From the NCBI GenBank assembly GCA_003554585.1, contig PWGV01000183.1, forward strand, positions 8,574-72,573: 64,000 bases of DNA, given 5' to 3'. Source of the DNA: Halobacteroidaceae bacterium (lineage in GTDB: Bacteria > Bacillota > Halanaerobiia > B1SED10-174). The notes under the pieces were generated by a model that was not told where the DNA came from, did no database searches, and worked only from the letters and a program-made list of their open reading frames with translations. A program made the position numbers and the translations under genes. This document shows, one piece after another, positions 2,596 through 56,593 of the stretch; positions within the stretch are counted from its first letter, which is position 1; every line of letters starts with the position of its first letter.

Positions 2596-2640
2596 AAACC
2601 CCGATAAAATTTTTCCAATAGCCTGCGGGAGGGGATACAG

Positions 2641-4057: not shown

Positions 4058-4059
4058 AA

Positions 4060-4092: not shown

Positions 4093-4094
4093 TC

Positions 4095-4739
4095 CTAGAC
4101 CATACTTAGGGCCGTGAAAAGAGCAATGTTGGCAAGAATGTGGGAGTAAACCGTATAGCGAATGGAACCTGTTTTCATTGCAATATAGTTCCAGCATAAG
4201 CCAAATATTGCACCTCCACCGAGTAAAATGAAAACCTGTTCAATGTTCCAGGGTTCAGTGGCAAGAAATGGTCCCAGGTGCCAGGCTCCAAACCCAATTG
4301 CAGGGTAGATAACCCCGCAGAACAATTTTTTTGGGAAAAGCCTGATAAAAGCTCCCCGCCAGAGGATTTCCTCCAGCAACCCGTTCCATAAAGACATTGG
4401 GATAGCGATTAACATCATCAGAAGAGTGGATTCTGGCCAGAGAGCACGTTCTCCTTCAAAAGGGCCGGTAAAAACAACGGAGAGGATTACGGGTATTGCA
4501 AGGATTATTACACCTAAAAAGGCTTGTTTTCTCAAAGGTTGTTGGACCTTTAATAGGACTTGTTTCAATTGTCCCCAGCCCATTAACCAGACTGGAAAGG
4601 CAAGGCACCAGAAAAGCCAGTAGAGGCCGTAACCCAGTGAAAAGGAAACCATGTGTTGGAGTTCACTGGTCCAATGCATTACCAAGTAAACACTCAGGGG
4701 AACAAAAATTGGAGCAAGAATTAAAGCTGCTTTTTTCAT
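4095..4739 (-). CDS. CPBP family intramembrane glutamic endopeptidase (CAAX protease-like)
   Basis: EEILWRGAF, FGAWHL and HILANI motifs. Multi-TM. AAGGAGG SD before MKKAALIL at 4739 (the ORF extends to 4817). Confidence 0.75.
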   Translation of the reverse strand: MKKAALILAPIFVPLSVYLVMHWTSELQHMVSFSLGYGLYWLFWCLAFPVWLMGWGQLKQVLLKVQQPLRKQAFLGVIILAIPVILSVVFTGPFEGERALWPESTLLMMLIAIPMSLWNGLLEEILWRGAFIRLFPKKLFCGVIYPAIGFGAWHLGPFLATEPWNIEQVFILLGGGAIFGLCWNYIAMKTGSIRYTVYSHILANIALFTALSMV

Positions 4740-4753
4740 GCTAGGGTACCTCC

Positions 4754-5806: not shown

Positions 5807-6043
5807 TTAACACCAACCCCCTTTGAAATTTGCTTCGATTTTTATTAAACTAACTCCCAGATCCCGAATACGATTAATGCAACCGAAGAAAGCTGCCTGA
5901 TCCTGGATCAGCCCGAAAAGGAGGGAGTTTCCTTCTGGTGTGTGTTGGGCTTTTAGTCCGGCGAACCATTCTGACCAGTCGGGATCTATATGCCCCCTGA
6001 TCCAAATTTTTAGTTTCACCTGATTTTTTGCCAAAGAATTCAT
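5807..6043 (-). CDS. Small conserved hypothetical protein (RGHxDxxWSxWF...DQAAxxGxxNRIRDLG type)
   Basis: GGAGGTG SD before MNSLAK at 6043. Abuts the downstream oxidoreductase gene. The sequence pattern is recognised from memory as a widespread uncharacterised family. Confidence 0.55.
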   Translation of the reverse strand: MNSLAKNQVKLKIWIRGHIDPDWSEWFAGLKAQHTPEGNSLLFGLIQDQAAFFGCINRIRDLGVSLIKIEANFKGGWC

Positions 6044-6144
6044 GTCGCACCTCCTGGAATGTTTCTTGCAGATCCATAATAATATTTTGGGGGCCAAAAG
6101 AGAACTGACGAAAGTTAGGTTAGGGTTAGGGAATGGGTTGGTAA

Positions 6145-6180
6145 ATAAAAAAACCGGGAAGCATCCCGGTTTTCAAAAAA
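6145..6180 (-). terminator. Rho-independent terminator downstream of the MalT-like gene
   Basis: On the minus strand: AACCGGGATGCTTCCCGGTT followed by a U-rich run. Confidence 0.65.
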
Positions 6181-6201
6181 AGGTTATTCAATTATATTTT
6201 T

Positions 6202-8889: not shown

Positions 8890-8915
8890 TTTGCTTGCCC
8901 CCTAACGGGTAATAT

Positions 8916-10064
8916 TTAGTCGTTGTTTCTATAATCCAGGGTTTTAAGGAAATTTTCCAGGGGTATTTCCCCGGAGATGTTTTCCTTGAGTTCCTGGTAT
9001 TTTCCTCTTGCTCCGGGCTGGTTGTAACCCTTAATGGCGCGGAGCATAATGTTTTTCGGTGTTTCGAGTGGAGAAACATATTCCACCACAGAAACCCTGT
9101 AGTTGTAGGCTTCCAGGGCTGCAGCTCTAAGGCCATCGGTGAAGATATCAGCCAGGCGGTTATGAAAAATATTATGCTTGCTGATTGGTTTCCACTGGTT
9201 AAAATCAATTTTTTGGTGCAGAGCGGCCTGGCAGCAGGGAACGGCAATAATGTACTTGCTTTCCAGGTGTAAACCGAGGGCCAGGGCTTCGTCTGTGGCC
9301 GTATCACAGGCATGCAAACTTAATACCATGTCGATATCCGAAGAAGAATGGAAATCCATTATTTTCCCCTGCCGGAATTCCATGTTGTGATAACCGAGCT
9401 GTTTTTGAATTTTCCGGGAGGAAGCAATAACATCGGCGTTATCATCGATCCCAATCACTTTACAGGGCATCCGTTTTTTTTCTGTTAACCAGTAATTAAG
9501 GACGAAGGAAAGATAGGACTTTCCGCAGCCGCAGTCGAGAATGGTGATTTTTCCCTTGTCGGGTTGTTCCTCAATTATTTCATCGATAAGTTCAATAAAC
9601 CGGTCAACCTGGTAGAACTTGCGGCGTTTATCGGCCTTGATTTGACCCTCGGGGGACATTATTCCCACTGCCTTTAGTAGTTCTTCGGCTTCACCCGCCC
9701 GGATGAAGTCCTGGCGGGTGCCGTATTCCGGGGTTTTTTGGTGCTGGGCAGGTTCATCCTGGGTATTAATTTCCATTTTCACGTCTCCGGGGAGTATCTT
9801 TAACTGGACAACACTTCCCCTTTCAATTATTTTTACCGTTGCCTTTTCAATACCGGCCAGTTGCTGTTCAAGATATTCCCGGAGCTCTTCGCGGCTGATC
9901 CGGTCCTTTTCTGCAAGTAAATAGCGAGGATTTTCCGGGTCAACCTGGAGAGTGCTTTTTTCCCTGGCAGAGGTGATTTCTATCCGCTTTAAGTTATCCG
10001 TATCTTTCAGCCGGTAAAAGGTCATCTGCAGTAGGTTTCTCAGCTTCTGGTTCCTTTTTTTCAT
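8916..10064 (-). CDS. Class I SAM-dependent methyltransferase with N-terminal extension
   Basis: Motif I ILDCGCGKSYLS. HACDTATD motif. 382 aa. Confidence 0.65.
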   Translation of the reverse strand: MKKRNQKLRNLLQMTFYRLKDTDNLKRIEITSAREKSTLQVDPENPRYLLAEKDRISREELREYLEQQLAGIEKATVKIIERGSVVQLKILPGDVKMEINTQDEPAQHQKTPEYGTRQDFIRAGEAEELLKAVGIMSPEGQIKADKRRKFYQVDRFIELIDEIIEEQPDKGKITILDCGCGKSYLSFVLNYWLTEKKRMPCKVIGIDDNADVIASSRKIQKQLGYHNMEFRQGKIMDFHSSSDIDMVLSLHACDTATDEALALGLHLESKYIIAVPCCQAALHQKIDFNQWKPISKHNIFHNRLADIFTDGLRAAALEAYNYRVSVVEYVSPLETPKNIMLRAIKGYNQPGARGKYQELKENISGEIPLENFLKTLDYRNND

Positions 10065-10278
10065 ATTGTTCTCTCCTTGAACTCGGTTTAAGATTTTTTT
10101 TGCTCCTAGGTTTTTATTAGATTTTAGCAGAGGGAAGTCCTTTTTTAAAGGGAAAAAACCTTGAAAGATTAGGTTTGAAAGGGGTAAGGAAAGCAGAAGT
10201 ACGGTGAAGGAAAGGGTTTTTTTGGAAACCGTCGAAGGGAAAATAGAGCAAACAAAATTCTAGGAGGGGGAAAACACC

Positions 10279-12051
10279 TTGCTTAAAAACCTGGAAAAAA
10301 CCTGGGACCTGGAAGATATTTTCCCCGGGGGCAGCGAATCAGAAGAATTAAAAGAATATATAGCAGAGCTGGAAAAAGAAATTAAAGAATTGAACGAAGG
10401 AGTAAGAGGAGAAATTGAGAACTGGCCAGCTTTAATAGACCGGGTGCAGAAGGCAGGGGGGAGGCTCCGGGAGGCAAGTTCTTTTATCGGCTGCCTTAAC
10501 GCCCAAAATACTAAGGACGAGCAGGCCAAGCTTTTAGGGCGGAAAATGCAGCAGTTGGGCGCTGCCCTGCAGTCAGTTTTTACAACCCTGGATAAAAAAA
10601 TGCTGCAAATCCCCGAAGCAGTATGGGAAAAGCTTCTCGAGGAAATGAGTGAACTTGCTTATAACCTGGAAGAAAGGCGGCAGCGGGCAGCAGAATTAAT
10701 GTCCGAAGAACAAGAAAAACTGGCTACGGACCTTTCTGTAGATGGGTACCACGGCTGGAGTGACCTTTATAATGTTATTACCGGTCGAATGGCTATTCCG
10801 TTTACTGTTAAGGGGAAGAAAAAAAAGCTGTCTATTGGCCAGGCCGCCAATATTTTTGCCGATCCGGATCCAAAGGTCCGGAAGGAAATGGGGGAAAAGT
10901 GGGAAGAAGCTTGGTCGGAGGAAGCCGAACTCTGTGCCAATGCTTTAAACCACCTGGGAGGGTTCCGCCTGAATCTCTACCGGCACCGGGGCTGGGATTC
11001 GGTATTAAAAGAACCCCTGGAAATTAACCGGATGGCTCCCCAGACCCTTGACGTGCTGTGGGAAGTAATTGAGCAAAATAAAGATGTGTTTGTTAGTTTC
11101 CTGAACCGCAAGGCCGAGATGCTGGGCCTGGAAAAACTTCGCTGGTGTGATCTGCGGGCACCAGTGGCCGAGACCTCGAAGGAATATTCTTTTGAGGAAG
11201 GGGCCAATTTTATTGTTAACCAGTTTGAGCAGGTCAGTCCCCGCATGGCTGAATTTGTCCGGCAGGCTTTTGCAAAAAGGTGGGTTGAAGCTGAAGACCG
11301 TGGTGGGAAAAGGCAGGGAGCTTTTTGCACCAGCTTCCCCATGAGCGAACAAACCAGGGTTTTTATGACCTATTCCGGGACCGCTGGCAACGTTTCCACC
11401 CTGGCCCATGAACTGGGTCATGCTTTCCATCAGCATGCGATGAAAGGCTTACCCCTACTTTCCCAGCGTTACGCCATGAATGTAGCCGAAACAGCTTCTA
11501 CTTTTGCGGAAATGGTAGCAGCTGATGCTGCTCTGCGCAATGCCAAAGATGAGCAAGAAAAAATTGCTCTGCTGGGAGATAAAGTCGGCAAGAGTATCTC
11601 TTTTTTCATGGATATCCACTGCCGGTTCCTGTTTGAAAAGGACTTTTACGCTGCCCGGAAGAAAGGGCCAGTTGGTACGGATCAATTAAATGAGATAATG
11701 GAAAACGCTCAGAAAAAAGCTTTCAGGGAGAGTCTTGCCGATTATCACCCTCACTTCTGGGCTTCCAAGCTGCATTTCTATATTACTGCAGTTCCATTCT
11801 ACAATTTCCCCTATACCTTCGGTTATCTTTTCAGTGCGGGAGTTTACGCCATGGCCAGTCAGGAAGGGGAAAACTTTGAACAGAAATATATAGACCTGCT
11901 CAGGGATACGGGTAGAATGCAGGTAGAAGACCTCGCCCGCAAGCACCTGGGTGTAGACCTGACTCAGCCAGATTTCTGGCAGAAAGCTGTGAGCCTGGCC
12001 GCTGAAGATGCAGAGGAATTTTTAAGGTTAACCGAACAAAAGAAAAGGTAG
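10279..12051 (+). CDS. pepF: M3B oligoendopeptidase F
   Basis: 590 aa. Zinc motif HELGHAFH. AGGAGGGGG SD before the TTG start. Confidence 0.85.
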   Translation: MLKNLEKTWDLEDIFPGGSESEELKEYIAELEKEIKELNEGVRGEIENWPALIDRVQKAGGRLREASSFIGCLNAQNTKDEQAKLLGRKMQQLGAALQSVFTTLDKKMLQIPEAVWEKLLEEMSELAYNLEERRQRAAELMSEEQEKLATDLSVDGYHGWSDLYNVITGRMAIPFTVKGKKKKLSIGQAANIFADPDPKVRKEMGEKWEEAWSEEAELCANALNHLGGFRLNLYRHRGWDSVLKEPLEINRMAPQTLDVLWEVIEQNKDVFVSFLNRKAEMLGLEKLRWCDLRAPVAETSKEYSFEEGANFIVNQFEQVSPRMAEFVRQAFAKRWVEAEDRGGKRQGAFCTSFPMSEQTRVFMTYSGTAGNVSTLAHELGHAFHQHAMKGLPLLSQRYAMNVAETASTFAEMVAADAALRNAKDEQEKIALLGDKVGKSISFFMDIHCRFLFEKDFYAARKKGPVGTDQLNEIMENAQKKAFRESLADYHPHFWASKLHFYITAVPFYNFPYTFGYLFSAGVYAMASQEGENFEQKYIDLLRDTGRMQVEDLARKHLGVDLTQPDFWQKAVSLAAEDAEEFLRLTEQKKR

Positions 12052-43152: not shown

Positions 43153-43197
43153 CGCTGGCCAGTTAGGGGAGGAAAAAAATAAGGAAAGGTGGTTTTT

Positions 43198-44730
43198 ATG
43201 AAAAAGATCCTTTGTATGCTTTTGGTGCTGGGTCTTGTTCTTGGTCTGTCCGGGCTTGCCCTGGCACAGACGTCGGTAGGAATTGCTTTCCAGGTTGAGC
43301 CTTCCAAACTCAATCCCATAACCTACCAGGATACTGAAACCGGTTTTGTTCTTGGTTCAATCTGCAGTCCCCTGGTTACTCTGACTGAAGAAGGTGATTT
43401 CACAGCAGATGACGCAGTAATTGAAAGTTTTTCTGTTGAGGAAGGAGGAAGAATTTATACCTTTGTGATTCGGGAAGGAATAACCTTCCACAACGGAGAT
43501 CCCCTCACAGCCCACGATGTCAAATTTACCTTCGAAGCTTTTATGGACGAATCTTTAGGTTCTCCCCACCACCGCTATTATACCGGGATTGAAGAACTGG
43601 AATTGGAGGGAGATTACACTCTCCGCGTAATTTTAAGTGAACCCAATGTAACATTTTTGACCATGTCCCGTCTTCGCAACCATGTTCTGCCCAAGGATTA
43701 TATTGAGGAAGTGGGCTGGGAAGGTTTTGAAAGACAACCCATTGGCTCCGGTCCTTTCAAATTCGTAGAGCATGTTCCGGGGAACCGTATTGTCCTGGAA
43801 AAATTCGAGGATTTCTGGGGTGAGGAAGCCAAGCTTGACCAAGTGCAGTTCCGCTTCTACCCGGAGCTTTCTACAGCTCTCATGGCCCTGGAAACTGGCG
43901 CTGTAGATTTTATGCCCGAAATGCCGGCGGAAGAATTCATGGATCTTCAGGATAGGGGAGTCGCAGGTTTGAACTTTGGAACATACCAGAAATTTGAAGA
44001 CCACCGGATCTGCTTTAATAAGAGGGAAGGTTCGGAATTCAGTGACATCCGGGTGAGACAGGCTGTAGCCTATGCTATCGACATTAATGAGCTGATTGTC
44101 CTTACCAGGGGCGAGATGGCTACTGCTGCCCGGGGCCGGATACCTTCTTTCCACCCGGGTTATGCCGAAAATGCAAATGCCTATGAAGTTGATCTGGATA
44201 AAGCCAGGGAACTCCTTGCTGAAGCAGGATATCCCGATGGATTTGAAACTGCAATTTATGCGCCTGCAGGTTACCGGGAGCGGGTTCAGGAGGTTCAGCA
44301 GATCCAGCAGCAGCTGGCCCAGATCGGTATCCAGGCAGAGGTAGTAACCCTGGAGTGGGGAACCTATCTGGACGTAACCGCTGAAGGAGAGGCACCTATG
44401 TTCCGTGAGCGCTGGAGCGCTGGAGTTCCCGAGCCCATCGGTTTCATTGAATCCTGGCATTCAGAATCAAGCTGGAACCCCATTTTCGGGACCTATGAAA
44501 ATCCCGAGGTGGATGCCCTGATAGATCAAATAATGCAGACAGTTGATACCCAGGAGCGCTGGGAGCTGTACAAACAGGTCCAGGAAATTGCCATGGAAGA
44601 TGTTGCAGACTACCCACTTTACTGGCCTTTAATTGGAGAGGCCTTCAATGATCAGCTTGATATTCCGGACCATCTCTGGAACGCTTTCAAACGCCCCATT
44701 TACTTCATCAACTACTGGAGCTACAAGTAA
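43198..44730 (+). CDS. ABC transporter substrate-binding protein, family 5
   Basis: Signal peptide MKKILCMLLVLGLVLGLSGLALA. GSGPFKFVEHVPGNRIVLEKF. The ORF opens at GTG 43189. Confidence 0.85.
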   Translation: MKKILCMLLVLGLVLGLSGLALAQTSVGIAFQVEPSKLNPITYQDTETGFVLGSICSPLVTLTEEGDFTADDAVIESFSVEEGGRIYTFVIREGITFHNGDPLTAHDVKFTFEAFMDESLGSPHHRYYTGIEELELEGDYTLRVILSEPNVTFLTMSRLRNHVLPKDYIEEVGWEGFERQPIGSGPFKFVEHVPGNRIVLEKFEDFWGEEAKLDQVQFRFYPELSTALMALETGAVDFMPEMPAEEFMDLQDRGVAGLNFGTYQKFEDHRICFNKREGSEFSDIRVRQAVAYAIDINELIVLTRGEMATAARGRIPSFHPGYAENANAYEVDLDKARELLAEAGYPDGFETAIYAPAGYRERVQEVQQIQQQLAQIGIQAEVVTLEWGTYLDVTAEGEAPMFRERWSAGVPEPIGFIESWHSESSWNPIFGTYENPEVDALIDQIMQTVDTQERWELYKQVQEIAMEDVADYPLYWPLIGEAFNDQLDIPDHLWNAFKRPIYFINYWSYK

Positions 44731-46674: not shown

Positions 46675-46707
46675 AAAAAACCGGGAGCAATGCTCCCGGA
46701 TATTTTT
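46675..46707. terminator. Rho-independent terminator (bidirectional context)
   Basis: AAAAAACCGGGAGC-AATG-CTCCCGG followed by a T-rich tail. Confidence 0.7.
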
Positions 46708-47371
46708 ATGTCTGCATAATTTTGACTCCCGAACTGGTTCCGATTCTTGTTGCTCCTGCTTGAAGCATTGCCTTGCAGTCCTCCAGGGTTCTGATCCCAC
46801 CGGAGGCTTTAATTCCTAATCTTCCTCCTGCCAGTTTTCTAAACAGCCTGATATCTTCTAATGTTGCTCCCGCAGGTCCAAAACCCGTGGAGGTTTTAAG
46901 AAAATCTACTCCTTTGATTTCCAGACAGAGCTGGATCAGTTCCTTTTTTTCCTTTTCTTCGAGATAACAGGTTTCCAGGATTACCTTTAAAATCGATTCT
47001 CCGCAGACTTCAGAAACAGCCCGGATATCCTTTTCCACTTCAGTCCAAATCCCGCTTTTTACAGCTGTAATATTGGAAACCATGTCAATTTCAGTTGCCC
47101 CATTTTCCAGGGCTTCTCTGGCTTCGAATGCTTTTGTTTTAGGCGTTGTATAGCCCAGGGGAAATCCGATAGCAGCACTGAGTTCAATTCCGGAGCCTTC
47201 CAGTTCCCGGGCTGCAAGGGGAACGTAGTAAGGGCCAATGGCGACTGCGGCAAAGCCAAATTCTTTGGCTTCATTACAGATTTTTGTAATGGCCTCCGCT
47301 TTCCCTTCGGGGCGAAGGTAGGTGTGGTCAATTGTTTTTGCAATTTCTTTTTTAGTGAAGTCCATTATCAA
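46706..47371 (-). CDS. deoC: Deoxyribose-phosphate aldolase family (DeoC)
   Basis: 221 aa. Schiff-base lysine context FLKTSTGF. EIDMV. Last gene of the PTS operon. Confidence 0.8.
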   Translation of the reverse strand: MIMDFTKKEIAKTIDHTYLRPEGKAEAITKICNEAKEFGFAAVAIGPYYVPLAARELEGSGIELSAAIGFPLGYTTPKTKAFEAREALENGATEIDMVSNITAVKSGIWTEVEKDIRAVSEVCGESILKVILETCYLEEKEKKELIQLCLEIKGVDFLKTSTGFGPAGATLEDIRLFRKLAGGRLGIKASGGIRTLEDCKAMLQAGATRIGTSSGVKIMQT

Positions 47372-48129
47372 CTTCTCCTAACTCCCTGGTAACGCTGCAA
47401 CCAGGGCAGAAGGTTCTGGTATTTTCTTATCAGTTTCTCATTGTGCTCGGGACCCCAGTCCAGGTTACCGCTGGCGATAACAGGTGGTTCAATTCCCCGG
47501 GAGGATAGTAGTTTAACGATTTCAGATGTTAATGCCTGGAGGATAAAGGGCCCGGTAATACCGGAGATGGCACCGTAAGGGACTGGAGCATTTTCAGTTT
47601 CCAGAATTGCATCTCCTGCAGGGGCACAGTTATCGATTACCACATCGGCCAGCTGGTAAAGGTTTTCCCCGCCAGGATGCCGGGAAGAAACACTTTTACT
47701 GTGCTGCAGGGAAGTGACAGCGACAATTTTCAACCCCATTTCCTTCCCCAGCAGGGCTGTTTCAATGGGAACTGCATTTCGCCCGGAGTTGGAGATAATT
47801 ATCAGTGTATCCCCGGAGGAAAGGGGGTGGTGAGGCAAGAATCTTTCCGCAAGTCCCGGCAGGCGTTCGAGTTCACCGCTTTTAAAGGGTTGTTCATGGA
47901 GCATCAGGCTCGGTTCCAGAATGGCCTGGACAGGCAAAAGGCCTCCTGCGCGCAGGTAAATATCTGCAGCGACAAGATGGGAGTGGCCGGTACCAAAGGT
48001 GTGCAGCAGGCCACCGTTTGCTATGCTATCTGCTCCCAGTTCTGCTGCTTTTTGAATGTTTTCCAGTTGGGTTTTTTTTACCTTTTCCAGTATTTCTTCG
48101 GCTTTTTCCATATAATCCAGAGCGCTCAT
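47368..48129 (-). CDS. SIS domain protein, UPF0309 family (paralog 3)
   Basis: 253 aa. GTGHSH and ISNSGRN motifs. Overlaps the deoC start by 4 nt. Confidence 0.75.
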   Translation of the reverse strand: MSALDYMEKAEEILEKVKKTQLENIQKAAELGADSIANGGLLHTFGTGHSHLVAADIYLRAGGLLPVQAILEPSLMLHEQPFKSGELERLPGLAERFLPHHPLSSGDTLIIISNSGRNAVPIETALLGKEMGLKIVAVTSLQHSKSVSSRHPGGENLYQLADVVIDNCAPAGDAILETENAPVPYGAISGITGPFILQALTSEIVKLLSSRGIEPPVIASGNLDWGPEHNEKLIRKYQNLLPWLQRYQGVRRS

Positions 48130-48137
48130 AGTAATAC

Positions 48138-48875
48138 CTACCAGTTTTTAATCCTGGAGCAGTACCGTTCCAGGAGTTCCTCGTTGTGTTCTCTACCTTC
48201 GTCAATATTCCCGCTCAGAAATACAGGTGGTTTCAAGCCCTGCTCCAGCATTTTTTCAATTGCCATGACCACCAGGGAGTGGACGATGAAAAAGGCAGAA
48301 ATATTGGAAGTCGGGCCGATTGGGGTTTTTAAACCGGATAACTTGAAGGTGGCATCGCCCCGGACCCCGCAGTTATCAATCAAAATATCAGCAACGTCGA
48401 GCAATTTTTTCCCGCTGGAATGGCGGGATGTTGTGTTCATGCTGTGGTCCCGGGAAATAATGGCAATAACCGGAATGCCCCGGTTTCGGGCTGAAGCGGC
48501 GACTTCAATGGGAGCAGCATTTCGCCCCGAATTAGAAATAACTAGCAAGGTATCCCGGGGTTCGGGTTTGTGGTAATCAAGCAGTATTTCTCCCCAGCCT
48601 TCCATCCTTTCGGTATACTCGCTTTTGGTAACCTGTTCCTGTCCGGTCAGGCTTGGTTCCAGCCAGGCATTGACAGGAGCCAGCCCTCCGGCCCGGTAAA
48701 AAATTTCTTCTGCCACCAGGTGGGAATGGCCGGTCCCAAAAGCGTGGATAAGGCCATCACTTCCCAGGGTTTTGGCAAGGGTTTCGGCCGCTTTTTCCAG
48801 GTTTTCACCCTGGGTGTTTTTAACCTTTTCCAGGATTTCAGTGACCTTTTCATAATATGTTTCAAAAGCTTTCAT
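48138..48875 (-). CDS. SIS domain protein, UPF0309 family (paralog 2)
   Basis: 245 aa. GTGHSH and ISNSGRN motifs. Confidence 0.75.
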   Translation of the reverse strand: MKAFETYYEKVTEILEKVKNTQGENLEKAAETLAKTLGSDGLIHAFGTGHSHLVAEEIFYRAGGLAPVNAWLEPSLTGQEQVTKSEYTERMEGWGEILLDYHKPEPRDTLLVISNSGRNAAPIEVAASARNRGIPVIAIISRDHSMNTTSRHSSGKKLLDVADILIDNCGVRGDATFKLSGLKTPIGPTSNISAFFIVHSLVVMAIEKMLEQGLKPPVFLSGNIDEGREHNEELLERYCSRIKNW

Positions 48876-48893
48876 CTGAATTGCCTCCTTATT

Positions 48894-49652
48894 CTACCAG
48901 TGGACCCGCCCTTCGTAACGGGTTTTAATTTTTTCGTTGTGTTCGTCAGCCCCGTCCACGTTGAGGCTGATAAATACCGGCGGGGTTTCTCCCTCGGCCA
49001 GGATTAATTTAATGGTTTCTGCCGTTAGAGCCTGGGCGATAAACATGTTGGAAACTGAGGAAACAGAACAAACTTTGGTGTCTATCGCTTCGAGGGAAAT
49101 TGCGGCATCACCATATGGCCCGCAGTTATCGATGACAATGTCGGCAATTTCGAAAAGCCTCTTCCCGGAAGGGTGCCGGGCTTCGGTTTTCTTAGAATGG
49201 CTGAGGGAGGTAACCCCAATCAGGGGGATCCCTCTTTTTTTCATTTCCAGGGCGAGTTCCACGGCAGAACCATTCCGGCCCGAATTGGAACAGATTATCA
49301 TGACGTCACCCGGTTGAATATCGTGAATATTAAGCAATTCATGTGCCGTTTGGGGATCGCGTTCAGTTTCAGGCTGGCGCAGTTCTTCGTAGGTTATCGG
49401 GTTTTCAGCTTTTGTTACCAGGTCGTCCAGGGCGATCCCACTACAGGGTGCCAGTCCTCCCGCCCGGTGAACAAGTTCCATGGCGAAACTCTTGGAATGG
49501 CCCGGCCCGAAAATATGGACTACACCGTTATTTAAAATCCTCTGGGCCATGACCCGAGCAGCTTTTTTAATGTTCTCCATCTGTTCTTTTTCCAGGCGGT
49601 CAATAATTTCTCTCCCCTTCTGGAAAAACAACTCGGCTGAAATTTTTTCCAT
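48894..49652 (-). CDS. SIS domain protein, UPF0309 family (paralog 1, divergent)
   Basis: 252 aa. GPGHSK and CSNSGRN variants of the motifs. Confidence 0.75.
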   Translation of the reverse strand: MEKISAELFFQKGREIIDRLEKEQMENIKKAARVMAQRILNNGVVHIFGPGHSKSFAMELVHRAGGLAPCSGIALDDLVTKAENPITYEELRQPETERDPQTAHELLNIHDIQPGDVMIICSNSGRNGSAVELALEMKKRGIPLIGVTSLSHSKKTEARHPSGKRLFEIADIVIDNCGPYGDAAISLEAIDTKVCSVSSVSNMFIAQALTAETIKLILAEGETPPVFISLNVDGADEHNEKIKTRYEGRVHW

Positions 49653-49654
49653 TT

Positions 49655-50821
49655 TTATGCCTCCTTCTGTATTTGGCCGCTGACAATTGTTGTCACTGCC
49701 TCGAAGTCATCATCGAGGACGGTAAAAGTTGCTTCTTTGCCGGGTTTAAGGTCTCCCAGGTTTGTTTCTTTTATAGCAAGGGCAGGATTCCGGGAAGCAA
49801 CAGAACTAATGGCTGGAAGCGAAAGGCCTACCTCGTTAAATAAAGTTTTTGCTCCCCTGGCCATCAAGGCGGTGCTGCCGGCAAGGGTTCCATCATCGAG
49901 AAAGCTTCTTCCTGCCTGGTCGATATTAATTTTTTTGCCCCCAAAATCATAAGATCCGGGAGGTAATCCAGCAGCCAGAATCGCGTCGGAAATAAGGACG
50001 AGTTTTTCACTGCCCTTGCAGCGGTAGGCCAGATTTAGAACTGCAGGGTGGATATGAATTCCATCGGCAATAACCTCGCAGAAGACCCGGTCATCAGTTA
50101 AATAGGCCCCTACAACACCTGGTTTTCTGTGGTGAAGAGGGCTCATGGCATTGAAAAGGTGGTTGGCAATTGAAATCCCGGCGTTGATGCCTTCTGTCAT
50201 CTGCTCATAGGTTGCATTTGTATGCCCGCCAGCAATTAAATAACCCCTTTGCCTGGCATACTTAATTAAATCAAGAGCTCCTTCTTTTTCCGGGGCCAGG
50301 GTTAAACGCAGCAGCATCCCCCGGGCAGCTTCCTCCAGTTCAGCGAAAAAATCAAGGGATGGTTCAAGCAAGTATTTTTCAACCATGGCTCCTTTCCTTT
50401 CCACATTCAAAAAGGGGCCTTCCAGATGAATTCCTAAAATTTTGGCTCCGCCGGCCCCGTTTTCCTGTTCTTCCCGGGCTTTTTTTACTGCTTTAATTTG
50501 TTTAATCAGATCCTCGAGGCCCAGGCTGGTAGTAGTGGGCATAAAAGCGGCGGTTCCTTTTTTGGCCAGGAAACGGGCTAACTTGAGAATATCTTCCGGT
50601 TTTTCGGTTAAAGGATAGCCCCCTGCGCCGTGGATATGCAGGTCAACAAAACCGGGAAAAACCATCTTACTGCCCAGATCTATTTTTTCTCCCGAAAAAG
50701 AAGGAGGTATTGGCCCCCTGGTTACTTCAGCTATTTCCCCATCGGAAATTATCATGTGTCCGGCAAGAATTTCTTCAGTTGAAATTAGTTTTTCGCTGTA
50801 AAGGGCAAAGGATTTGCCCAT
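49655..50821 (-). CDS. nagA: N-acetylglucosamine-6-phosphate deacetylase family amidohydrolase
   Basis: 388 aa. DLHIHGAGG and HLFNAMS motifs. Confidence 0.85.
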   Translation of the reverse strand: MGKSFALYSEKLISTEEILAGHMIISDGEIAEVTRGPIPPSFSGEKIDLGSKMVFPGFVDLHIHGAGGYPLTEKPEDILKLARFLAKKGTAAFMPTTTSLGLEDLIKQIKAVKKAREEQENGAGGAKILGIHLEGPFLNVERKGAMVEKYLLEPSLDFFAELEEAARGMLLRLTLAPEKEGALDLIKYARQRGYLIAGGHTNATYEQMTEGINAGISIANHLFNAMSPLHHRKPGVVGAYLTDDRVFCEVIADGIHIHPAVLNLAYRCKGSEKLVLISDAILAAGLPPGSYDFGGKKINIDQAGRSFLDDGTLAGSTALMARGAKTLFNEVGLSLPAISSVASRNPALAIKETNLGDLKPGKEATFTVLDDDFEAVTTIVSGQIQKEA

Positions 50822-50822
50822 T

Positions 50823-52100
50823 TCAGATCATCTCCTTTAAAATTTCTTCCAGGGTTTTGACCAGGTCCTGGCCAAAGGTTGGCGCGAGGGGGGAGGAAAG
50901 GGCTTCATAACCACCCTCATTAAAAGCATCGGGATCGGGAATATAACCGAGGTGCCCATTGGAATACCCGCAGAGAATAATTGCCGAGGAGGGAAGTTGA
51001 TAAAGTGGCTGGGCCAGACTTGAGAAAAGCTCGCCGGGAATTGACGCCAGCGCAGTCCCCCCAATGTAACCGCAGGTTATTTCTGCGTTCTGTTCCAGTT
51101 GATCCTGGAGTTCGGCCACGTATTCCTGGATTCTGGCTCCTTCCAAACCGGTCTGAGCCAGGCGAATATCCCCGGGTTCTGCACCCTGAGCCTCCAGTTC
51201 CTTTTTCTTTTTTTCCCACTTTTTGATTTCCTGTTTTCTCTCCTCCGGGGAGGGGAGTTTACGGAAAGGAACTTCGATAGCAAAATTTTTTACCTGCAGG
51301 CTATCCTTAGGAAATTTTTTAAACTTGAGATTGCAGTAAAGGGAAAGGGCTTCTCCAGCAAAAAGTTTGCCCAGTCTTTCAACTTCTTCTAAATTTTGGG
51401 CCCTGCGTTCAAAACGGGTGCTGATATCTCCAGCGGCCCCGTTTACAAATCCTATGGTTGTTTGGGGAAACAGCTTGCGCAGGTTTTTGATCATTGCCCC
51501 CGGAAAATCAGGGGAGAGGAGAAGGTTATCTGCACCGAGGACTGTGGGGTGACACCCGTAGTTTACTATAATCGCTTTGGGTTCTTTATTACCGGGAATT
51601 TTAGCGCTCAACAGGGAAAGGGGAAGAGAGGGTTTTTCTTCTTTACCCCGCCTGTTGCTTCCAATTCCGGTGATATATCTGCTGCCGGAAGCCATTTCGA
51701 TTTCTTCCAGGTTCTGTTCTGCCATAAGCAGAGAGCCGGCAAGGGCGCGTTGAACCCAGTCCACATAATCGGGATCAGGGTCGAATCTAAAATCCCCCCG
51801 GCTGAAAGTGGAAGGACCGGAATGGGTGTGACTGCAGGAAACAATAATATTGGAAGAGGGGATCCCGGTTAACCTTTCCGCTTCCTCCCTGATAAAGGAG
51901 GATTGATCAAAGTTGAGCATTAAGAGATCGGCAGTAATTAAACCCAGTTTCTCTTTCCCGTCCTGGAAAACAAACGAACGGGCATAGAGGGGAGAGGCAA
52001 TTCCCTTTGCAGGGCCTGCTCTTGCTCCATACCCCCCCATTGTAATTGGTATCTGGGGGGTGATTTCAATTTCTGCACAACCAAAAAGCATTTTTATCAC
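50823..52100 (-). CDS. Neutral/alkaline-ceramidase-N-terminal-like hydrolase (function unknown)
   Basis: 425 aa. The N-terminus FGCAEIEITPQIPITMGGYG..LYARSFVF..ITADLL resembles the ceramidase_alk family (from memory, not verified). Confidence 0.5.
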   Translation of the reverse strand: MIKMLFGCAEIEITPQIPITMGGYGARAGPAKGIASPLYARSFVFQDGKEKLGLITADLLMLNFDQSSFIREEAERLTGIPSSNIIVSCSHTHSGPSTFSRGDFRFDPDPDYVDWVQRALAGSLLMAEQNLEEIEMASGSRYITGIGSNRRGKEEKPSLPLSLLSAKIPGNKEPKAIIVNYGCHPTVLGADNLLLSPDFPGAMIKNLRKLFPQTTIGFVNGAAGDISTRFERRAQNLEEVERLGKLFAGEALSLYCNLKFKKFPKDSLQVKNFAIEVPFRKLPSPEERKQEIKKWEKKKKELEAQGAEPGDIRLAQTGLEGARIQEYVAELQDQLEQNAEITCGYIGGTALASIPGELFSSLAQPLYQLPSSAIILCGYSNGHLGYIPDPDAFNEGGYEALSSPLAPTFGQDLVKTLEEILKEMI

Positions 52101-52588
52101 AACCCATTTTTTTCTAGGGCCTTGATGAAGTCCATACCGCTGTCAGAAGGCATAACTTTGGAACGCAGGTTGTATCCTTTATCCGCGATTGCCCGATAGA
52201 TCGGGGCCTGGTCCTCGGTAACAGCTATGGAACGGGTGATGTGTTTGGGCTTGGTCTTGGGTAAAGTTGCCTGATTGCCAACAATTACTTCTTTGGGGTC
52301 TGCGCCCTTTTCAATTAAATCAAGAGCATCGGAAGGGAATTTTGCAACTACCATAATTTTTTCCTTCTGGGCCTTTTCTGAATCCAGGTATTCAATGGCT
52401 TTATCGATTCCCAAAACGGAGGTTTTGACCCCCCGGGCTGCGTTGGGAAGGAGCTGTTTCTGGATGGGATCCTGGGCAACTTTATCATTAACCACGATAA
52501 TATGGTCTGCCCCGAGGTAGCTCACCCAGGCCACGGTTACCTGGCCGTGGATTAATCGATTATCAATTCTCATGTGAATCAAAGGCAT
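52097..52588 (-). CDS. PTS mannose/fructose/sorbose family EIIB
   Basis: MPLIHMRIDNRLIHGQV (phospho-His context). AAGGGGGA SD. The ORF extends to 52660, but that part overlaps IIA. Confidence 0.85.
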   Translation of the reverse strand: MPLIHMRIDNRLIHGQVTVAWVSYLGADHIIVVNDKVAQDPIQKQLLPNAARGVKTSVLGIDKAIEYLDSEKAQKEKIMVVAKFPSDALDLIEKGADPKEVIVGNQATLPKTKPKHITRSIAVTEDQAPIYRAIADKGYNLRSKVMPSDSGMDFIKALEKNGL

Positions 52589-52601
52589 CTTTTGTCCCCC
52601 T

Positions 52602-53012
52602 TTATTGGTCTTTTTGCATGACTTCAGACATAATCTGGACGCTTTGAGTCGCCAGTTCACGGCAATTTTGGGCTAATTCTTTAAGTCCCGTGGAACTGCG
52701 CATGTTTGCAATTTCCAAAAGCATGGGTAAATTTACTCCTGTAACCACTTCGATAGGAGGGTTTTCCGAGTCCAGAAGGTAAGCGGAAGCGTTGGAGGGA
52801 GTTCCCCCGAAAAGATCGGCCATAATGAGTACCCCATCAGGAGTTTCCATTGCCTGGGCTGCTTTTTTTAATTTTTCCCTGTAATCTTCAGGGCCCATAT
52901 CGGGTTCCAGAGCCAGGGCAGTAATTTTCTCCTGGGGTCCCATGATCATTTCCAGGGCATCCATAAAACCTCCGGCCAGTTGCCCGTGTGATGCAACTAT
53001 AATTCCAACCAT
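52602..53012 (-). CDS. PTS mannose family EIIA
   Basis: MVGIIVASHGQLAGG. 136 aa. Confidence 0.85.
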   Translation of the reverse strand: MVGIIVASHGQLAGGFMDALEMIMGPQEKITALALEPDMGPEDYREKLKKAAQAMETPDGVLIMADLFGGTPSNASAYLLDSENPPIEVVTGVNLPMLLEIANMRSSTGLKELAQNCRELATQSVQIMSEVMQKDQ

Positions 53013-53072
53013 ATTTTTTCCTCCTAAAGCTAAAATTGGGGCAGGGGCACGGCCCCTACCCCTTGAGGTTTT

Positions 53073-53918
53073 TTACAGAATTCCAATAAGGCTTCCGCCG
53101 AAGGCGATAACAACCAGGGCCAGCAGGACCTTGATTGGTGACCACTTAAGCGGTCCCCTCAGCAACCAGTAGGCCAGGGCAACGAGCAGGACCGGAATTA
53201 AATAGGGGAGCAACTGGTCCAGGACGTCCTGAACTGCAACAACCTGTTCAGTTAGCTCACCTTCGACTTCCACGGTCTCGGTGTATTCCAGGGGAGTGGT
53301 TACTCCCGAGAGGATACTGGGAACAAACCCACCAATAACCGTTAAACCGAGTATCGTGGCACTTGTTGTTAGCTTATCCATTGTACCGCCAGCTGCGGTA
53401 TCCTGGACAATATCAGCACCACGCTGATAACCTTGCCAGAAGAGGTAAATTTTTACCCCGATACCCCAGAAGAGGCCGAAAAGGATCATCAGCCAGAAAC
53501 CGCCCATGCTGCCTCCCAGGGCCAGGGAAGCGGCAAAAACACCAATAATCGGGCGGGTTAGGATGGCAAAAAGGGTATCGCCAATTCCGGCGAGGGGTCC
53601 CATCAGACCTACCTTGAGACTGTCCACTGCCTCGCCTTCTGCGCCCTGTTCTTCAAGGGCAGCGGCTGCCCCAATAATACCCGCACCCATGGGAGGGGGA
53701 GTATTGAAAAAGTTCAAATGCCGCTGCAGGGCGAGCTTAAGGTCTTCCTTAGTTTCGTTTACCTTTTCCAGGATGGGCATAATGGCCCAGGCAAAACCCA
53801 GGGCCTGCATCCGTTCATAGTTCCAGGACCACTGGAAGGTGAACATGTACCGCAACAAAACACGCCACAGATCTCTTTTGGTTACCTTCTTTTCGTTTTT
53901 ATTAGGCACTTGCCTCAC
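53073..53918 (-). CDS. PTS mannose family EIID
   Basis: 281 aa. N-terminal KKVTKRDLWRVLLRYMFTFQWSWNYERMQALGF is typical of IID. Confidence 0.85.
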   Translation of the reverse strand: MRQVPNKNEKKVTKRDLWRVLLRYMFTFQWSWNYERMQALGFAWAIMPILEKVNETKEDLKLALQRHLNFFNTPPPMGAGIIGAAAALEEQGAEGEAVDSLKVGLMGPLAGIGDTLFAILTRPIIGVFAASLALGGSMGGFWLMILFGLFWGIGVKIYLFWQGYQRGADIVQDTAAGGTMDKLTTSATILGLTVIGGFVPSILSGVTTPLEYTETVEVEGELTEQVVAVQDVLDQLLPYLIPVLLVALAYWLLRGPLKWSPIKVLLALVVIAFGGSLIGIL

Positions 53919-54675
53919 CTTCTTTCATGTGAAAATAGAGGGCGGCCAGTGCTGCACCAGCGATGGCAAGGCCGATTACCGGTACTTCCAGATAGGCAAA
54001 AAGGATGAAACCGATAATGAGAAACGGCCAGTATTTCTTAACAGGCAGCATGCTTAAAAGCAGGGCAAAACCGAGTGCGGGAAGGACGGCCCCGGTAGTA
54101 GAAATTGCTTCCTGAAACCATTCCGGGATCCACTCCATAAACCGCTGGACAGGACCAGCACCGAGCCATATAGCCAGAAATACGGGGATGGCCCGGGTCA
54201 ACCCCCAGGGTAACTGCCCTAAAATGTGCATTAAAGTTACGCCCCGGAAGTTTTCGTCCTCGACATATTTGTCTGCTCCGTGAATAAATACCGTGGTTAT
54301 AGCCCGACCAAAAACGTCCAACTGGGTCATCAAGAGGGCGGCGGGAACTGCAATGGTTAACCCCGTGGCCATGGCCGATTCTACATTGCCGTCATAGGCC
54401 AGGGCACCGAATGCTGTTCCCAGGATCGCCCCTGTTAAGAAGTCGGGAATAGTAGCACCACCATAAGTATGCATTCCCAGTGAGATAATCATTAGTGTAC
54501 CACCAACTGCCAGACCAAGGGGAATGTTCCCGACAATAATTCCAGTTACAGCGCCGGCAACTATTGGTTCGTGGAAGCTGATGTTAGGGGCCAGCATGGA
54601 AACGATAGCAATATAGGCCCATAAACCCAGGACTAAGGCTGTCCCTATACCATAGGGAGAGACAACTTCTTCCAT
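53902..54675 (-). CDS. PTS mannose family EIIC
   Basis: 257 aa, polytopic. Sits directly upstream of IID. Confidence 0.8.
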   Translation of the reverse strand: MEEVVSPYGIGTALVLGLWAYIAIVSMLAPNISFHEPIVAGAVTGIIVGNIPLGLAVGGTLMIISLGMHTYGGATIPDFLTGAILGTAFGALAYDGNVESAMATGLTIAVPAALLMTQLDVFGRAITTVFIHGADKYVEDENFRGVTLMHILGQLPWGLTRAIPVFLAIWLGAGPVQRFMEWIPEWFQEAISTTGAVLPALGFALLLSMLPVKKYWPFLIIGFILFAYLEVPVIGLAIAGAALAALYFHMKEGEASA

Positions 54676-54758
54676 GTCACTACCTCCTTAATAAAGAATG
54701 ATAAATCCGTTTTACTACCCCAACAAGCATAGAATTTAAGGGAAAACCACCTCCTTAA

Positions 54759-55514
54759 TTATCGTTCAAGGTAAAAGAAAAATTTGTAGCGGTCCGCTCG
54801 GTAAAATGATCTGACAAATTCAAAAGGTTCACCCTGTTCGGTGTAGGTTAATCGTTCCCGCAAAAAAACCGGGGTTCCGGGAAGTATTCCCAGAAGATCT
54901 GCTTCTTTTTTTTCTGCTGCTAAAGCCTCCAGGGTTTCTTTAGCCCGGCCAAGGGTCAGGTTGAATTTATCCCGCAGGAGACTGTAAAGAGAACCGTGCT
55001 CCAAATCCCTTTTATTCATACCAGGAAAAAGAGAAAAGGGAAGAAAGGAAATTTCCCTGGCCATGGGTTCATTGTTAGCCAGACGTAATCTTTCAATCAG
55101 GTATATTTTTCCGCCGGGCCGAAGTTTTAGCTCCTCCTGGATCTGGTTCTCGGGAGTTTTTATGGAAAAAGAGAGCAGGAGGGTGGCCGGTTTAAGCCCC
55201 CGGCTGATCATATCCTCGGTAAAACTGGTTAAATGGAACAAACCCTGGTTGAGCTTGGCCTGGGCAACGAAGGTTCCCAGTCCCCGCTTGCGGACAAGAA
55301 CTCCTTTGTTAACAAGGGCATTGGTTGCCTGCCGAACTGTTAGACGGTTAATATTATAGGTTTTTGCCAGTTCCCGTTCCGAGGGGAGTTTTTCCCCCGG
55401 CTGGAGAAGTCCCTCATCTATTGCTTTTTGAATTATTTTCTGGAGCTGGTAATAAAGGGGTGCTGGTAATTTGGGATCTAACGGGTATTTTTTCTGTGGG
55501 CTGGAAAAAACCAT
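54759..55514 (-). CDS. GntR/HutC-family regulator with UTRA domain (NagR/DasR-like)
   Basis: LPSERELAKTYNINRLTVRQATNALV wHTH. UTRA-like C-terminus. A dre-like site lies 20 nt upstream. Confidence 0.85.
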   Translation of the reverse strand: MVFSSPQKKYPLDPKLPAPLYYQLQKIIQKAIDEGLLQPGEKLPSERELAKTYNINRLTVRQATNALVNKGVLVRKRGLGTFVAQAKLNQGLFHLTSFTEDMISRGLKPATLLLSFSIKTPENQIQEELKLRPGGKIYLIERLRLANNEPMAREISFLPFSLFPGMNKRDLEHGSLYSLLRDKFNLTLGRAKETLEALAAEKKEADLLGILPGTPVFLRERLTYTEQGEPFEFVRSFYRADRYKFFFYLER

Positions 55515-55534: not shown

Positions 55535-55550
55535 AGTGGTATAGACCACC
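55535..55550. promoter_or_regulatory. dre-like operator AGTGGTATAGACCACC
   Basis: Matches the NagR/DasR consensus A(G/C)TGGTCTAGACCA(C/G)T at all but two positions. Lies just upstream of the GntR start. Confidence 0.6.
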
Positions 55551-55735: not shown

Positions 55736-56593
55736 GTGAAGAAAAAAATAATAAAAGTAATTGCCATAGACCTGGATGGAACCCTGCTGGATTCCAGGCA
55801 GAGGATCAGTGCTTATACAAAGAAAATCCTCGATGAATGCCGCAACAGGGACATTAAACTGGTTATCGCCACAGGTAGAAATCAGCACTCTGCCCGGGAG
55901 CTGGTCCGGGGCATAGGGCCGGTTTCTTTTGTTAGCAATAACGGGAGCAATATTGTTGATGAGGAGGGAAAAGTCCTCCGAGAGCGGGAAATTTTCCGTT
56001 CGACCACGAGGGAGATTATCGCCCATAGCAGGGAGATCGGAAAACTATATTTCTTTTTGGTTTCCCCGGATACTCTGCTGATGCCACCGACCCGGAAAAG
56101 TCTATGTAGACCTTTAATTCGTCACCTTTTTTCCAGGCAGGGGCTGATGGAGTACCTGGACAACAGGAAGCTTGTCCCGAGAATAAGAACAAGGGATATT
56201 GAAGGTTATATCCAGAAAAATCCTTTTAAGGTTCAGAAGATAAATTTTATCGGTGAAGCTTTTCGGATTGAAGAACTGGAAAAGAGGATTGAGGCCTTTA
56301 ACCTGGCGATAACCAGGGGTCACGAGTGGAGTATAGATATCAATCCTTCTGGTGTTAACAAGGGGGAGGCCCTGCAATTTTTAACTGGACACTGGGGAAT
56401 ATCCCAGGACAGTTTTCTGGCTTTTGGAGACGGGCATAATGACCTGGATATGCTCCGCTTTGCGGGAACGGGAGTAGTTATGGATAACTCCAGCCTGGGT
56501 CAATTAAAAGACAACGCCGACCTGGTTGCTCCGAGTAATAACGAAGATGGGGTGGCCCGGATAATAGAAAAAATGGTGCTTAGAGAAACCTGA
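55736..56593 (+). CDS. Cof-type HAD-IIB phosphatase
   Basis: IAIDLDGTLL and FGDGHNDLDM. GTG start. Confidence 0.85.
   Translation: MKKKIIKVIAIDLDGTLLDSRQRISAYTKKILDECRNRDIKLVIATGRNQHSARELVRGIGPVSFVSNNGSNIVDEEGKVLREREIFRSTTREIIAHSREIGKLYFFLVSPDTLLMPPTRKSLCRPLIRHLFSRQGLMEYLDNRKLVPRIRTRDIEGYIQKNPFKVQKINFIGEAFRIEELEKRIEAFNLAITRGHEWSIDINPSGVNKGEALQFLTGHWGISQDSFLAFGDGHNDLDMLRFAGTGVVMDNSSLGQLKDNADLVAPSNNEDGVARIIEKMVLRET

Follow-up and report, generated by a model that had tools for sequence, protein, structure and literature searches.

Recycling of N-acetylmuramic acid (MurNAc) is encoded in Bacillus subtilis by murQ-murR-murP-amiE-nagZ, and in Staphylococcus aureus it involves MurP, MupG and MurQ. 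In the levoglucosan pathway the C3-dehydrogenase LgdA acts together with a lyase and a hydratase, and GH4/ChbF-ChbG cleaves chitobiose-6-phosphate. Only one member of the UPF0309 family has been characterized, NagS of Streptomyces (SCO4393), in 2025; it dehydrates N-acetylglucosamine-6-phosphate (GlcNAc-6P) to 6P-chromogen I, which is then deacetylated by NagA in vitro (PMC12680351). In Streptomyces this sequence of reactions is a side path linked to toxicity and signalling and not a catabolic operon (PMC12680351). Here, we analyzed a predicted eleven-gene operon of a Halobacteroidaceae bacterium (assembly GCA_003554585.1, 2.89 Mb, 91.5% complete), located at positions 46706-55514 on the minus strand of a window of 64,000 nt, the whole stretch of contig PWGV01000183.1 that was studied. 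A full-text literature search found no published pathway with this gene set, and only the NagS work was relevant.

The listing of open reading frames (ORFs) contains eleven consecutive intact minus-strand ORFs in this region, with spacings from -17 to 83 nt. The initial annotation had described them as tightly packed and partly overlapping, which the coordinates bear out, and Pfam and NCBIfam scans returned the family that it had named for every gene. The genes, in the order of transcription and with PTS standing for phosphotransferase system, are:

54759-55514, minus strand: GntR/HutC-subfamily repressor with UTRA effector domain (PF00392 and PF07702)
53902-54675, minus strand: mannose-family PTS IIC (EII-Sor; PF03609, 229 bits)
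53073-53918, minus strand: mannose-family PTS IID (EIID-AGA; PF03613, 280 bits)
52602-53012, minus strand: mannose-family PTS IIA (EIIA-man; PF03610)
52097-52588, minus strand: mannose-family PTS IIB (PTSIIB_sorb; PF03830)
50823-52100, minus strand: CerL, 425 aa (Pfam Ceramidase_alk, N-terminal match)
49655-50821, minus strand: NagA paralog, NagA-like (TIGR00221, 318 bits, cut-off 226)
48894-49652, minus strand: SIS-B, UPF0309 (PRK02947/SIS_2, 285 bits, cut-off 135)
48138-48875, minus strand: SIS-C, UPF0309 (PRK02947/SIS_2, 310 bits, cut-off 135)
47368-48129, minus strand: SIS-A, UPF0309 (PRK02947/SIS_2, 298 bits, cut-off 135)
46706-47371, minus strand: DeoC (TIGR00126, 262 bits, cut-off 117)

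The junctions between these genes are spaced as follows:

PTS end: GntR/IIC gap of 83 nt; IIC/IID overlap of 17 nt; IID/IIA gap of 60 nt; IIA/IIB gap of 13 nt
Middle: IIB/CerL overlap of 4 nt; CerL/NagA-like gap of 1 nt; NagA-like/SIS-B gap of 2 nt
3' end: SIS-B/SIS-C gap of 18 nt; SIS-C/SIS-A gap of 8 nt; SIS-A/DeoC overlap of 4 nt

The ORF of the IIB gene is open to 52660. Its start is probably the ATG at 52588, behind AAGGAGG, since the PF03830 match begins at residue 29 and the orthologs are 159-164 aa long. The best NCBIfam match of the GntR protein was the LSA1692 subfamily, with a score under the cut-off of that model.

Family scans with Pfam and NCBIfam revealed no sugar kinase, NagB-type or AgaS-type gene among the 11 operon proteins, as had been noted before; such genes are present elsewhere in the genome. 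The features that define known routes were then compared one by one. For the canonical nag route, the NagA-like protein scores as a NagA equivalog (TIGR00221), though it is a second copy, and neither a PF01182 NagB nor a NagB-II/AgaS protein is encoded in the operon. For the aga/N-acetylgalactosamine (GalNAc) route, the AgaS double-SIS deaminase, tagatose-6-phosphate kinase and tagatose-bisphosphate aldolase are absent from the operon, and its aldolase is an equivalog of deoxyribose-5-phosphate aldolase (DERA), not LacD or AgaY. For MurNAc recycling, the operon contains no MurQ-type etherase (GKRP_SIS_N), Glc-family MurP or Amidase_3. For the frl, gfr and dga routes, no FrlB/GfrE-type deglycase, DgaE (SelA-like) or KDPG aldolase was found among the 11 proteins. 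The mismatch with the textbook nag, aga, dga and frl routes that the initial annotation had pointed out is confirmed by these tests, and it extends to gfr and to MurNAc recycling. The operon is of the PTS-linked amino-sugar catabolic type, with two enzyme families that have no assigned role and a terminal aldolase that is not known to be used by any amino-sugar route.

Based on these observations and on those described below, we consider the locus to be probably a catabolic operon under NagR-type repression. Its substrate would be an N-acetyl amino sugar with an additional amide-linked group, taken up and phosphorylated at C6. The operon would work through two modules, each of an amidase and a SIS protein, with a NagS-like enolization at C2.

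The first line of evidence is conservation. A search with CerL yielded ~900 relatives, and an exhaustive search gave 789 clusters at 50% identity (E <=1e-30). We collected 79 species-level loci, classed their ORFs against the window proteins and counted features only in the 43 of them whose flanks reach at least 5 kb on both sides. Mannose-family PTS membrane genes were present in 39/43 loci and at least one UPF0309 gene in 42/43, with two or more in 27/43. A NagA-like amidohydrolase was found in 33, a GFO/IDH/MocA (GFO) oxidoreductase in 25 and a GntR/UTRA gene in 19 of them. Thus, a neighbourhood comparison, which had been proposed as a check, showed that the core recurs across Bacillota and Chloroflexota. 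The carriers are Halobacteroidaceae, Symbiobacteriaceae, Tissierellia-type genera and Lachnospiraceae in the Bacillota, and Anaerolineae and Ktedonobacteria in the Chloroflexota. Most recovered loci come from metagenome-assembled genomes (MAGs) and are dominated by Anaerolineae and Bacillota. The carriers also include cultured species, namely Wukongibacter baidiensis, Sporosalibacterium faouarense, Brassicibacter mesophilus, Pelolinea submarina and Ktedonosporobacter rubrisoli. A sister species (L007) has a gene order identical to that of the window, from the divergent HAD gene described below through deoC, and its HAD protein is 70% identical to that of the window. Because this order is kept and the core recurs in dozens of genomes, the arrangement lies far beyond chance. 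A lineage-specific oddity was considered and rejected, as the cluster spans two phyla. Within the class of the organism, CerL was found in its own genus only (3/61 genomes); the operon was therefore probably acquired horizontally. The SIS-C-SIS-A-DeoC arrangement occurs in 4/5 genomes of the genus. CerL genes were also seen on three contigs binned as Bathyarchaeia (L030, L052 and L066), of which L066 in addition carries a PTS IIA, an amidohydrolase, a SIS and an Enzyme I gene. This reflects either binning contamination or a transfer into archaea.

The second line of evidence concerns CerL. The Pfam neutral-ceramidase model matched over the first ~100 residues only. An AlphaFold2 model of the protein had a predicted local distance difference test score of 94, and a Foldseek search with it against the PDB returned only the human and Pseudomonas neutral ceramidases (probability 1.0). 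The template modelling (TM) score was 0.75-0.79 when normalized to the query and ~0.5 when normalized to the target, so CerL corresponds to the catalytic domain without the C-terminal Ig-like domain. Against the ceramidase chain 2zws, the CerL family profile aligned the HTHSGP motif together with an Arg, a His (in CHPT), a Glu (in PGE) and two Tyr residues. We take these residues of the Pseudomonas structure to be its zinc ligands and catalytic residues. The model and the alignment argue for CerL being a zinc amidase that shares the catalytic fold of neutral ceramidases, and its gene neighbours argue for a cytoplasmic location. Invariant, family-specific arginines (R27, R229, R232 and R313) suggest that its substrate is anionic and phosphorylated and not a lipid. 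Neutral ceramidases are secreted or membrane proteins; CerL has no annotated N-terminal extension and, with 425 aa, is the catalytic domain alone. A function as lipid ceramidase was rejected, given that the neighbours are all cytoplasmic sugar-phosphate enzymes and that a natural fusion to a SIS domain exists. In this fusion protein of the representative library (P0173, 698 aa), a CerL domain at ~18-420 is joined to a UPF0309 SIS_2 domain at 443-577, and the SIS half groups with SIS-A. By the Rosetta-stone argument, this indicates that CerL and a UPF0309 enzyme work successively on one molecule. In Bacillota loci the SIS-A gene usually lies directly after CerL, and SIS-B usually lies directly after the NagA-like amidohydrolase. 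The two adjacencies, taken with the fusion, suggest that the cluster consists of two amidase and SIS modules plus accessory enzymes. Conservation of the core across phyla together with the natural fusion indicates a real, shared and undescribed pathway.

The third line of evidence comes from the UPF0309 proteins. SIS-A, SIS-B and SIS-C all match the solved structures 3cvj ('putative phosphoheptose isomerase') and 9eol, which is NagS, the latter with E-values of 1e-33 to 1e-49. In NagS, residues H53, R64, E94 and D179 are essential, N228 is important, and S54, S119 and S121 bind phosphate (PMC12680351). These catalytic and phosphate-binding residues are retained in all three window paralogs. 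Among 127 cluster UPF0309 proteins, from which a tree was calculated, H53, R64, E94, S119, S121 and D179 are invariant (127/127), and with S54 and N228 included each residue of the full set is present in 125-127 of the 127. The sugar-contacting position 91 is G, P or E depending on the clade, and the loop preceding E94 also varies by paralog. NagS orthologs have been defined by an identity of at least ~59%, occurrence in Streptomycetaceae, a neighbouring dmdR1 gene and S91, and homologs outside the Streptomycetaceae are ~30% identical to NagS (PMC12680351). The cluster SIS proteins fall outside this definition, with NagS on a separate long branch of the tree and a residue other than S at position 91. 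The SIS-B clade (22 rows) had a support of 99 and the SIS-C clade (40 rows, 31 of them from Chloroflexota) a support of 98; the SIS-A group was supported more weakly, with 82. The three copies in the window thus fall into three old paralog lineages, two of them well supported. Because these lineages are old and differ in their sugar-contacting loops, three distinct reactions are likelier than redundancy. A fourth UPF0309 gene of the genome (C127:4362-5216) is SIS-C-like, has N228 replaced by Ser and adjoins a DegV-family gene.

The operon enzymes are dedicated copies, since canonical MurQ, NagZ, AnmK, NagB and NagA and a housekeeping DeoC are encoded elsewhere in the genome. A compact peptidoglycan-recycling cluster at C23:12513-22641 contains, by BLAST, MurQ, NagB (C23:20105-20842) and NagA. 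From their translations we take its other genes to encode RpiR/MurR, a DUF1343-like protein, a GH3 NagZ, AnmK and a large secreted protein. A MurP-type transporter or a muramoyl-alanine amidase was not visible within this cluster. The operon NagA-like protein is 38% identical to the canonical NagA of C23, 48% to the in-cluster amidohydrolase of locus L001 and 29% to the second NagA-like protein of L001. By these values its orthologs are the amidohydrolases inside the clusters of other genomes, and not the second NagA-like protein. We rejected it as the housekeeping NagA in view of the separate nagA-nagB set on C23. The canonical NagB of that set could finish the operon pathway.

The operon DeoC aligned over its full length with the solved DERA 8qps (232 bits) and retains the DMV, K..ET, KTSTGF, KASGG and TSSG motifs. 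Its closest outside relative (57%) is encoded in an operon with an RbsB-like ABC transporter, a PfkB kinase and GntR, as is typical of deoxyribose use, and for this reason the operon protein is very probably a true DERA. A role as the housekeeping copy was rejected, that copy being located on C123 beside cdd/era. DeoC is linked to the cluster in the genus of the window, in L001/L008/L009 and in L010, and at least two separate DERA lineages are involved. A same-class relative (L116, G020:C9:231000-249000) carries at 2136-11516 a GntR-regulated operon with genes for an RbsB-like binding protein, DeoC, an ABC ATPase, a permease, a PfkB kinase, an FGGY kinase, an OMPdecase/HUMPS-family protein and an aldo-keto reductase. 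This operon looks like a deoxyribose or pentose utilization unit.

The IIC/IID pair of the operon is the only mannose-family pair in the genome, and no PF02378 EIIC (Glc/Fru/Lac-type) was found anywhere in the assembly. The operon PTS may be the principal PTS permease of the organism, and the ptsH-ptsI genes (C61:6859-8831) may for the same reason be kept largely for this pathway. An orphan IIB-like gene adjoins etfAB at C55:6607-7233.

Control elements were predicted at both ends of the operon and within it, and a phosphatase gene diverges from the control region:

55736-56593, plus strand: Cof-type HAD-IIB sugar-phosphate phosphatase (TIGR00099, 168 bits, cut-off 137), divergent from the operon control region
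55537-55548, no strand assigned: predicted NagR/DasR-type dre-like operator TGGTATAGACCA, flanked by a TATAAT box and by the ribosome-binding site (GGGAGG) of the GntR gene
53038-53062, minus strand: strong G+C-rich hairpin of 11 bp in the IID-IIA spacer
46681-46699, minus strand: intrinsic terminator hairpin with T-run just past the deoC stop, bidirectional with the convergent ArsR gene

The sequence TGGTATAGACCA differs from the NagR/DasR dre core by one mismatch. A dre-like site with a 10-11/12 match lies 33-39 nt upstream of the GntR start in L001, L007, L008, L009 and L015. Across the genome, the dre 12-mer with at most one mismatch occurs at 3 sites and is thus not enriched, so the argument rests on the position of the site and its conservation in relatives. 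No sigma-54/LevR-type activator is encoded in the operon. A hairpin in the IID-IIA spacer, unrelated in sequence and often followed by a short T-run, was also found in most Bacillota loci (L001, L003, L007-L015, L022, L036 and L063), and in Chloroflexota loci a SIS gene takes its place. The hairpin probably acts either as a leaky terminator or on mRNA stability, and it may set the ratio of membrane to soluble components. The tight spacing, the positionally conserved operator and the terminator point to the eleven genes forming one transcription unit.

Related clusters carry several further genes. The GFO enzymes have the levoglucosan-dehydrogenase (LgdA) model as their top match, with 170-176 bits, far under the cut-off of 650. 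In the genome studied here, an LgdA-like GFO gene (44% to that of L001) adjoins CutC at C107:1683-3444, on a 3.6-kb contig, with a DegV-family gene alongside. Among the Chloroflexota loci, an MtnX-like HAD-IB phosphatase is additionally encoded in 32 and an AgaS/GlmD-type deaminase in 16, and two membrane proteins are further additions. NanE occurs in 3 loci, and a MurQ, NagB or MurR-like gene stands beside the cluster in L003/L017, L037 and L056. Some loci have CutC and PHP genes, and Cof, MtnX-like HAD-IB, bPGM-like HAD and PHP phosphatases are recurrent. A single cluster (L010) combines GFO, CutC, DeoC, PHP, two HADs, four SIS genes and two amidohydrolases. A gene for a family-5 (Opp/Dpp/MppA-type) peptide-binding protein was seen within ~10 kb of the cluster in the window (43189-44730), in L007 (17347-18888) and in L003 (19974-end). 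Its presence may be a coincidence or may be tied to peptide-bearing substrates.

From these data we infer an order of steps, a chemistry for each SIS paralog and a substrate. The GntR regulator, which is NagR/DasR-like, would repress its own operon through the dre-like site. The mannose-family PTS would import an externally supplied N-acylated amino sugar and phosphorylate it at C6. In the first module, CerL would hydrolyze an amide other than the ordinary 2-N-acetyl group, and the product would be passed to SIS-A. In the second module, the NagA paralog would take off the N-acetyl group in partnership with SIS-B. With their NagS-type set of His, Arg, Glu, Asp and Asn, the UPF0309 enzymes would deprotonate C2 of the open-chain phosphosugar and then eliminate, isomerize or deaminate. 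Finally, in this genus SIS-C and DERA would convert a deoxy-sugar phosphate to glyceraldehyde-3-phosphate and acetaldehyde. An LgdA-like GFO oxidoreductase is encoded in most other carriers instead, and the genome studied here has such a gene, together with CutC, on C107. Our best guess for the substrate is an N-acetylhexosamine (HexNAc) with a second amide-linked substituent, for example MurNAc with a stem peptide or a related cell-wall sugar.

Several points weigh against this reading. Three distant NagS homologs of non-Streptomycetaceae origin, including two from Bacillota, showed no or almost no dehydration of GlcNAc-6P (PMC12680351), so that the chemistry assigned to the UPF0309 enzymes of the operon is an extrapolation. 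DeoC is found in only ~6 of ~80 clusters, and its role is therefore possibly peripheral. We know of no reaction that joins hexosamine-6-phosphate to a DERA substrate. CerL itself may just be a non-orthologous deacetylase for HexNAc-6P, in which case the operon would be partly redundant. Finally, muramic-acid recycling is already provided for in this genome by MurQ and AnmK. The initial annotation had proposed an N-acylated or otherwise modified amino sugar that is degraded by an undescribed route. The undescribed route is supported by the cross-phylum core, the CerL-SIS fusion and the lack of a matching paper in the literature search. By its score the NagA-like protein is a true HexNAc-6P deacetylase; conventional steps may therefore make up part of the route, and the modified sugar is a candidate substrate.

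A bolder form of the proposal can be put forward only tentatively. Here, ceramidase-fold amidases and NagS-like UPF0309 enzymes would strip amides and nitrogen from a cell-wall-type HexNAc-6-phosphate by elimination, independently of NagB, and the resulting deoxy-sugar phosphate would go to DERA or, in most carriers, to an LgdA-like oxidoreductase.

Three other explanations were weighed in detail. The most economical of the specific readings is scavenging of muropeptides, as each core enzyme is used once; we nevertheless regard it as unlikely. The PTS would import MurNAc with its stem peptide or a MurNAc-containing fragment, and CerL would remove the peptide in the role of AmiE or AmpD. SIS-A would be a MurQ-like etherase that frees D-lactate, the NagA paralog would deacetylate GlcNAc-6P, and SIS-B or the NagB of the genome would deaminate. 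Two cuts on one lactyl-peptide arm suit the CerL-SIS-A fusion, the reaction of NagS corresponds to the MurQ half-reaction on a shared scaffold, and the regulator is NagR-type. The MurQ, NagB or MurR-like neighbours in some loci fit as well, and the carriers, mostly MAGs of Anaerolineae and Bacillota, may be necromass-feeding anaerobes. However, the GFO, CutC, DERA and phosphatase genes are left unaccounted for, and the clusters with a MurQ of their own mean that the SIS paralogs cannot all be etherases. The genome moreover encodes MurQ, NagZ and AnmK already, and a mannose-family PTS for muropeptides is unprecedented.

A productive version of the Streptomyces NagS-to-NagA sequence would supply the aldolase or oxidoreductase with a substrate that has the same D-erythro C4-C6 phosphate tail as deoxyribose-5-phosphate, which no other reading does. 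A UPF0309 dehydratase would form a 2,3-unsaturated HexNAc-6P, and an amidase would convert it via an enamine/imine to a 2-keto-3-deoxy sugar phosphate. This product would be oxidized or reduced by the LgdA-like GFO enzyme; in this genus, SIS-C would instead convert it, and DERA would then split it into glyceraldehyde-3-phosphate and a C2/C3 fragment. The order of NagS before NagA has been observed in vitro; the position of SIS-B next to the NagA-like gene is conserved, the catalytic residues are all retained and at least two separate DERA lineages occur in the clusters. We still find this route doubtful. The distant homologs tested did not dehydrate GlcNAc-6P, and there is no known precedent for a DERA that cleaves a 2-keto-3-deoxy-aldose phosphate, a reaction that would yield methylglyoxal. 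No enzyme is evident for the loss of C1, and CerL is given no clear role.

The two amidase and SIS pairs could also belong to an ordinary operon for several HexNAc sugars, an explanation to which we give little credence. CerL and a UPF0309 protein would be a non-orthologous substitute for NagA and NagB, so that parallel deacetylase and deaminase pairs would serve two or three epimers among N-acetylglucosamine (GlcNAc), GalNAc and N-acetylmannosamine (ManNAc). The end product would be fructose-6-phosphate and DeoC a hitch-hiker. SIS_2 relatives such as GmhA are aldose-ketose isomerases, and the AgaS/GlmD-like deaminase in 16 Chloroflexota loci and NanE in 3 loci would fit such an operon. Yet neither the prevalence of GFO genes and the recruitment of DERA from at least two lineages nor the age and distinctness of the three SIS lineages are accounted for, and AgaS-like or NagB genes beside the SIS genes argue against the latter encoding the final deaminases.

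Use of glycation (Amadori/Heyns) products, with the SIS proteins as deglycases as in frl, gfr and fra and the amidases trimming amide side chains, is very improbable: mannose-family PTS and SIS deglycases do serve fructoselysine and glucoselysine, an amidase is required for the use of fructose-asparagine and the cluster has no kinase, but the SIS proteins are not of the FrlB/AgaS type, the NagA-equivalog deacetylase and the dre operator indicate N-acetyl sugars, and a sigma-54/LevR-type activator is missing from the operon.

If the preferred reading of a two-module operon for an amide-substituted N-acetyl amino sugar is true, it would assign functions to two large families, CerL with its 789 clusters and UPF0309. 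It would also name a nutrient of fermentative Anaerolineae and Bacillota that enters the cell via a PTS, and a PTS in Chloroflexota is notable in itself. The NagB-independent elimination pathway, if true, would provide the first functions for two large orphan enzyme families.

Compared with known systems, the operon follows the same logic as MurNAc recycling, that is, a PTS, an amidase, a SIS-fold lyase, NagA and NagR/MurR-type control, and some related loci carry MurQ. In contrast to MurNAc recycling, the PTS is of the Man and not the Glc family, the amidase has the ceramidase and not the Amidase_3 fold, the SIS proteins are UPF0309 and not MurQ/GKRP, and the operon family adds GFO or DERA. 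The aga regulon of E. coli and the gnb operon of L. casei likewise have a mannose-family PTS, a NagA paralog, a SIS protein and a GntR/DeoR-type repressor. The operon differs from both in lacking an AgaS-type double-SIS deaminase, tagatose-6-phosphate kinase, bisphosphate aldolase and glycosidase, and it has CerL and DERA in addition. With the neutral ceramidases of P. aeruginosa (2ZWS) and human (4WGK), CerL has in common the fold of the catalytic domain and the zinc and catalytic residues, but it is 425 aa long instead of ~640-690 aa, has no C-terminal Ig-like domain and possesses invariant arginines of its own. The operon family resembles the redox-assisted eliminations of the levoglucosan and GH4/ChbF-ChbG systems, where a dehydrogenase is combined with proton-abstracting enzymes and a deacetylase acts before cleavage. 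In contrast to the levoglucosan pathway, the GFO enzymes score far under the LgdA cut-off, the GFO gene lies outside the operon in this genome and the partners are SIS-fold proteins instead of xylose-isomerase-like TIM barrels. Streptomyces NagS with NagA is like the operon in the UPF0309 family, in the retained residues and in the pairing with a NagA-type deacetylase. The operon stands apart from it in having no dmdR1 synteny, three paralogs with other sugar-contacting loops and a setting within a PTS catabolic operon.

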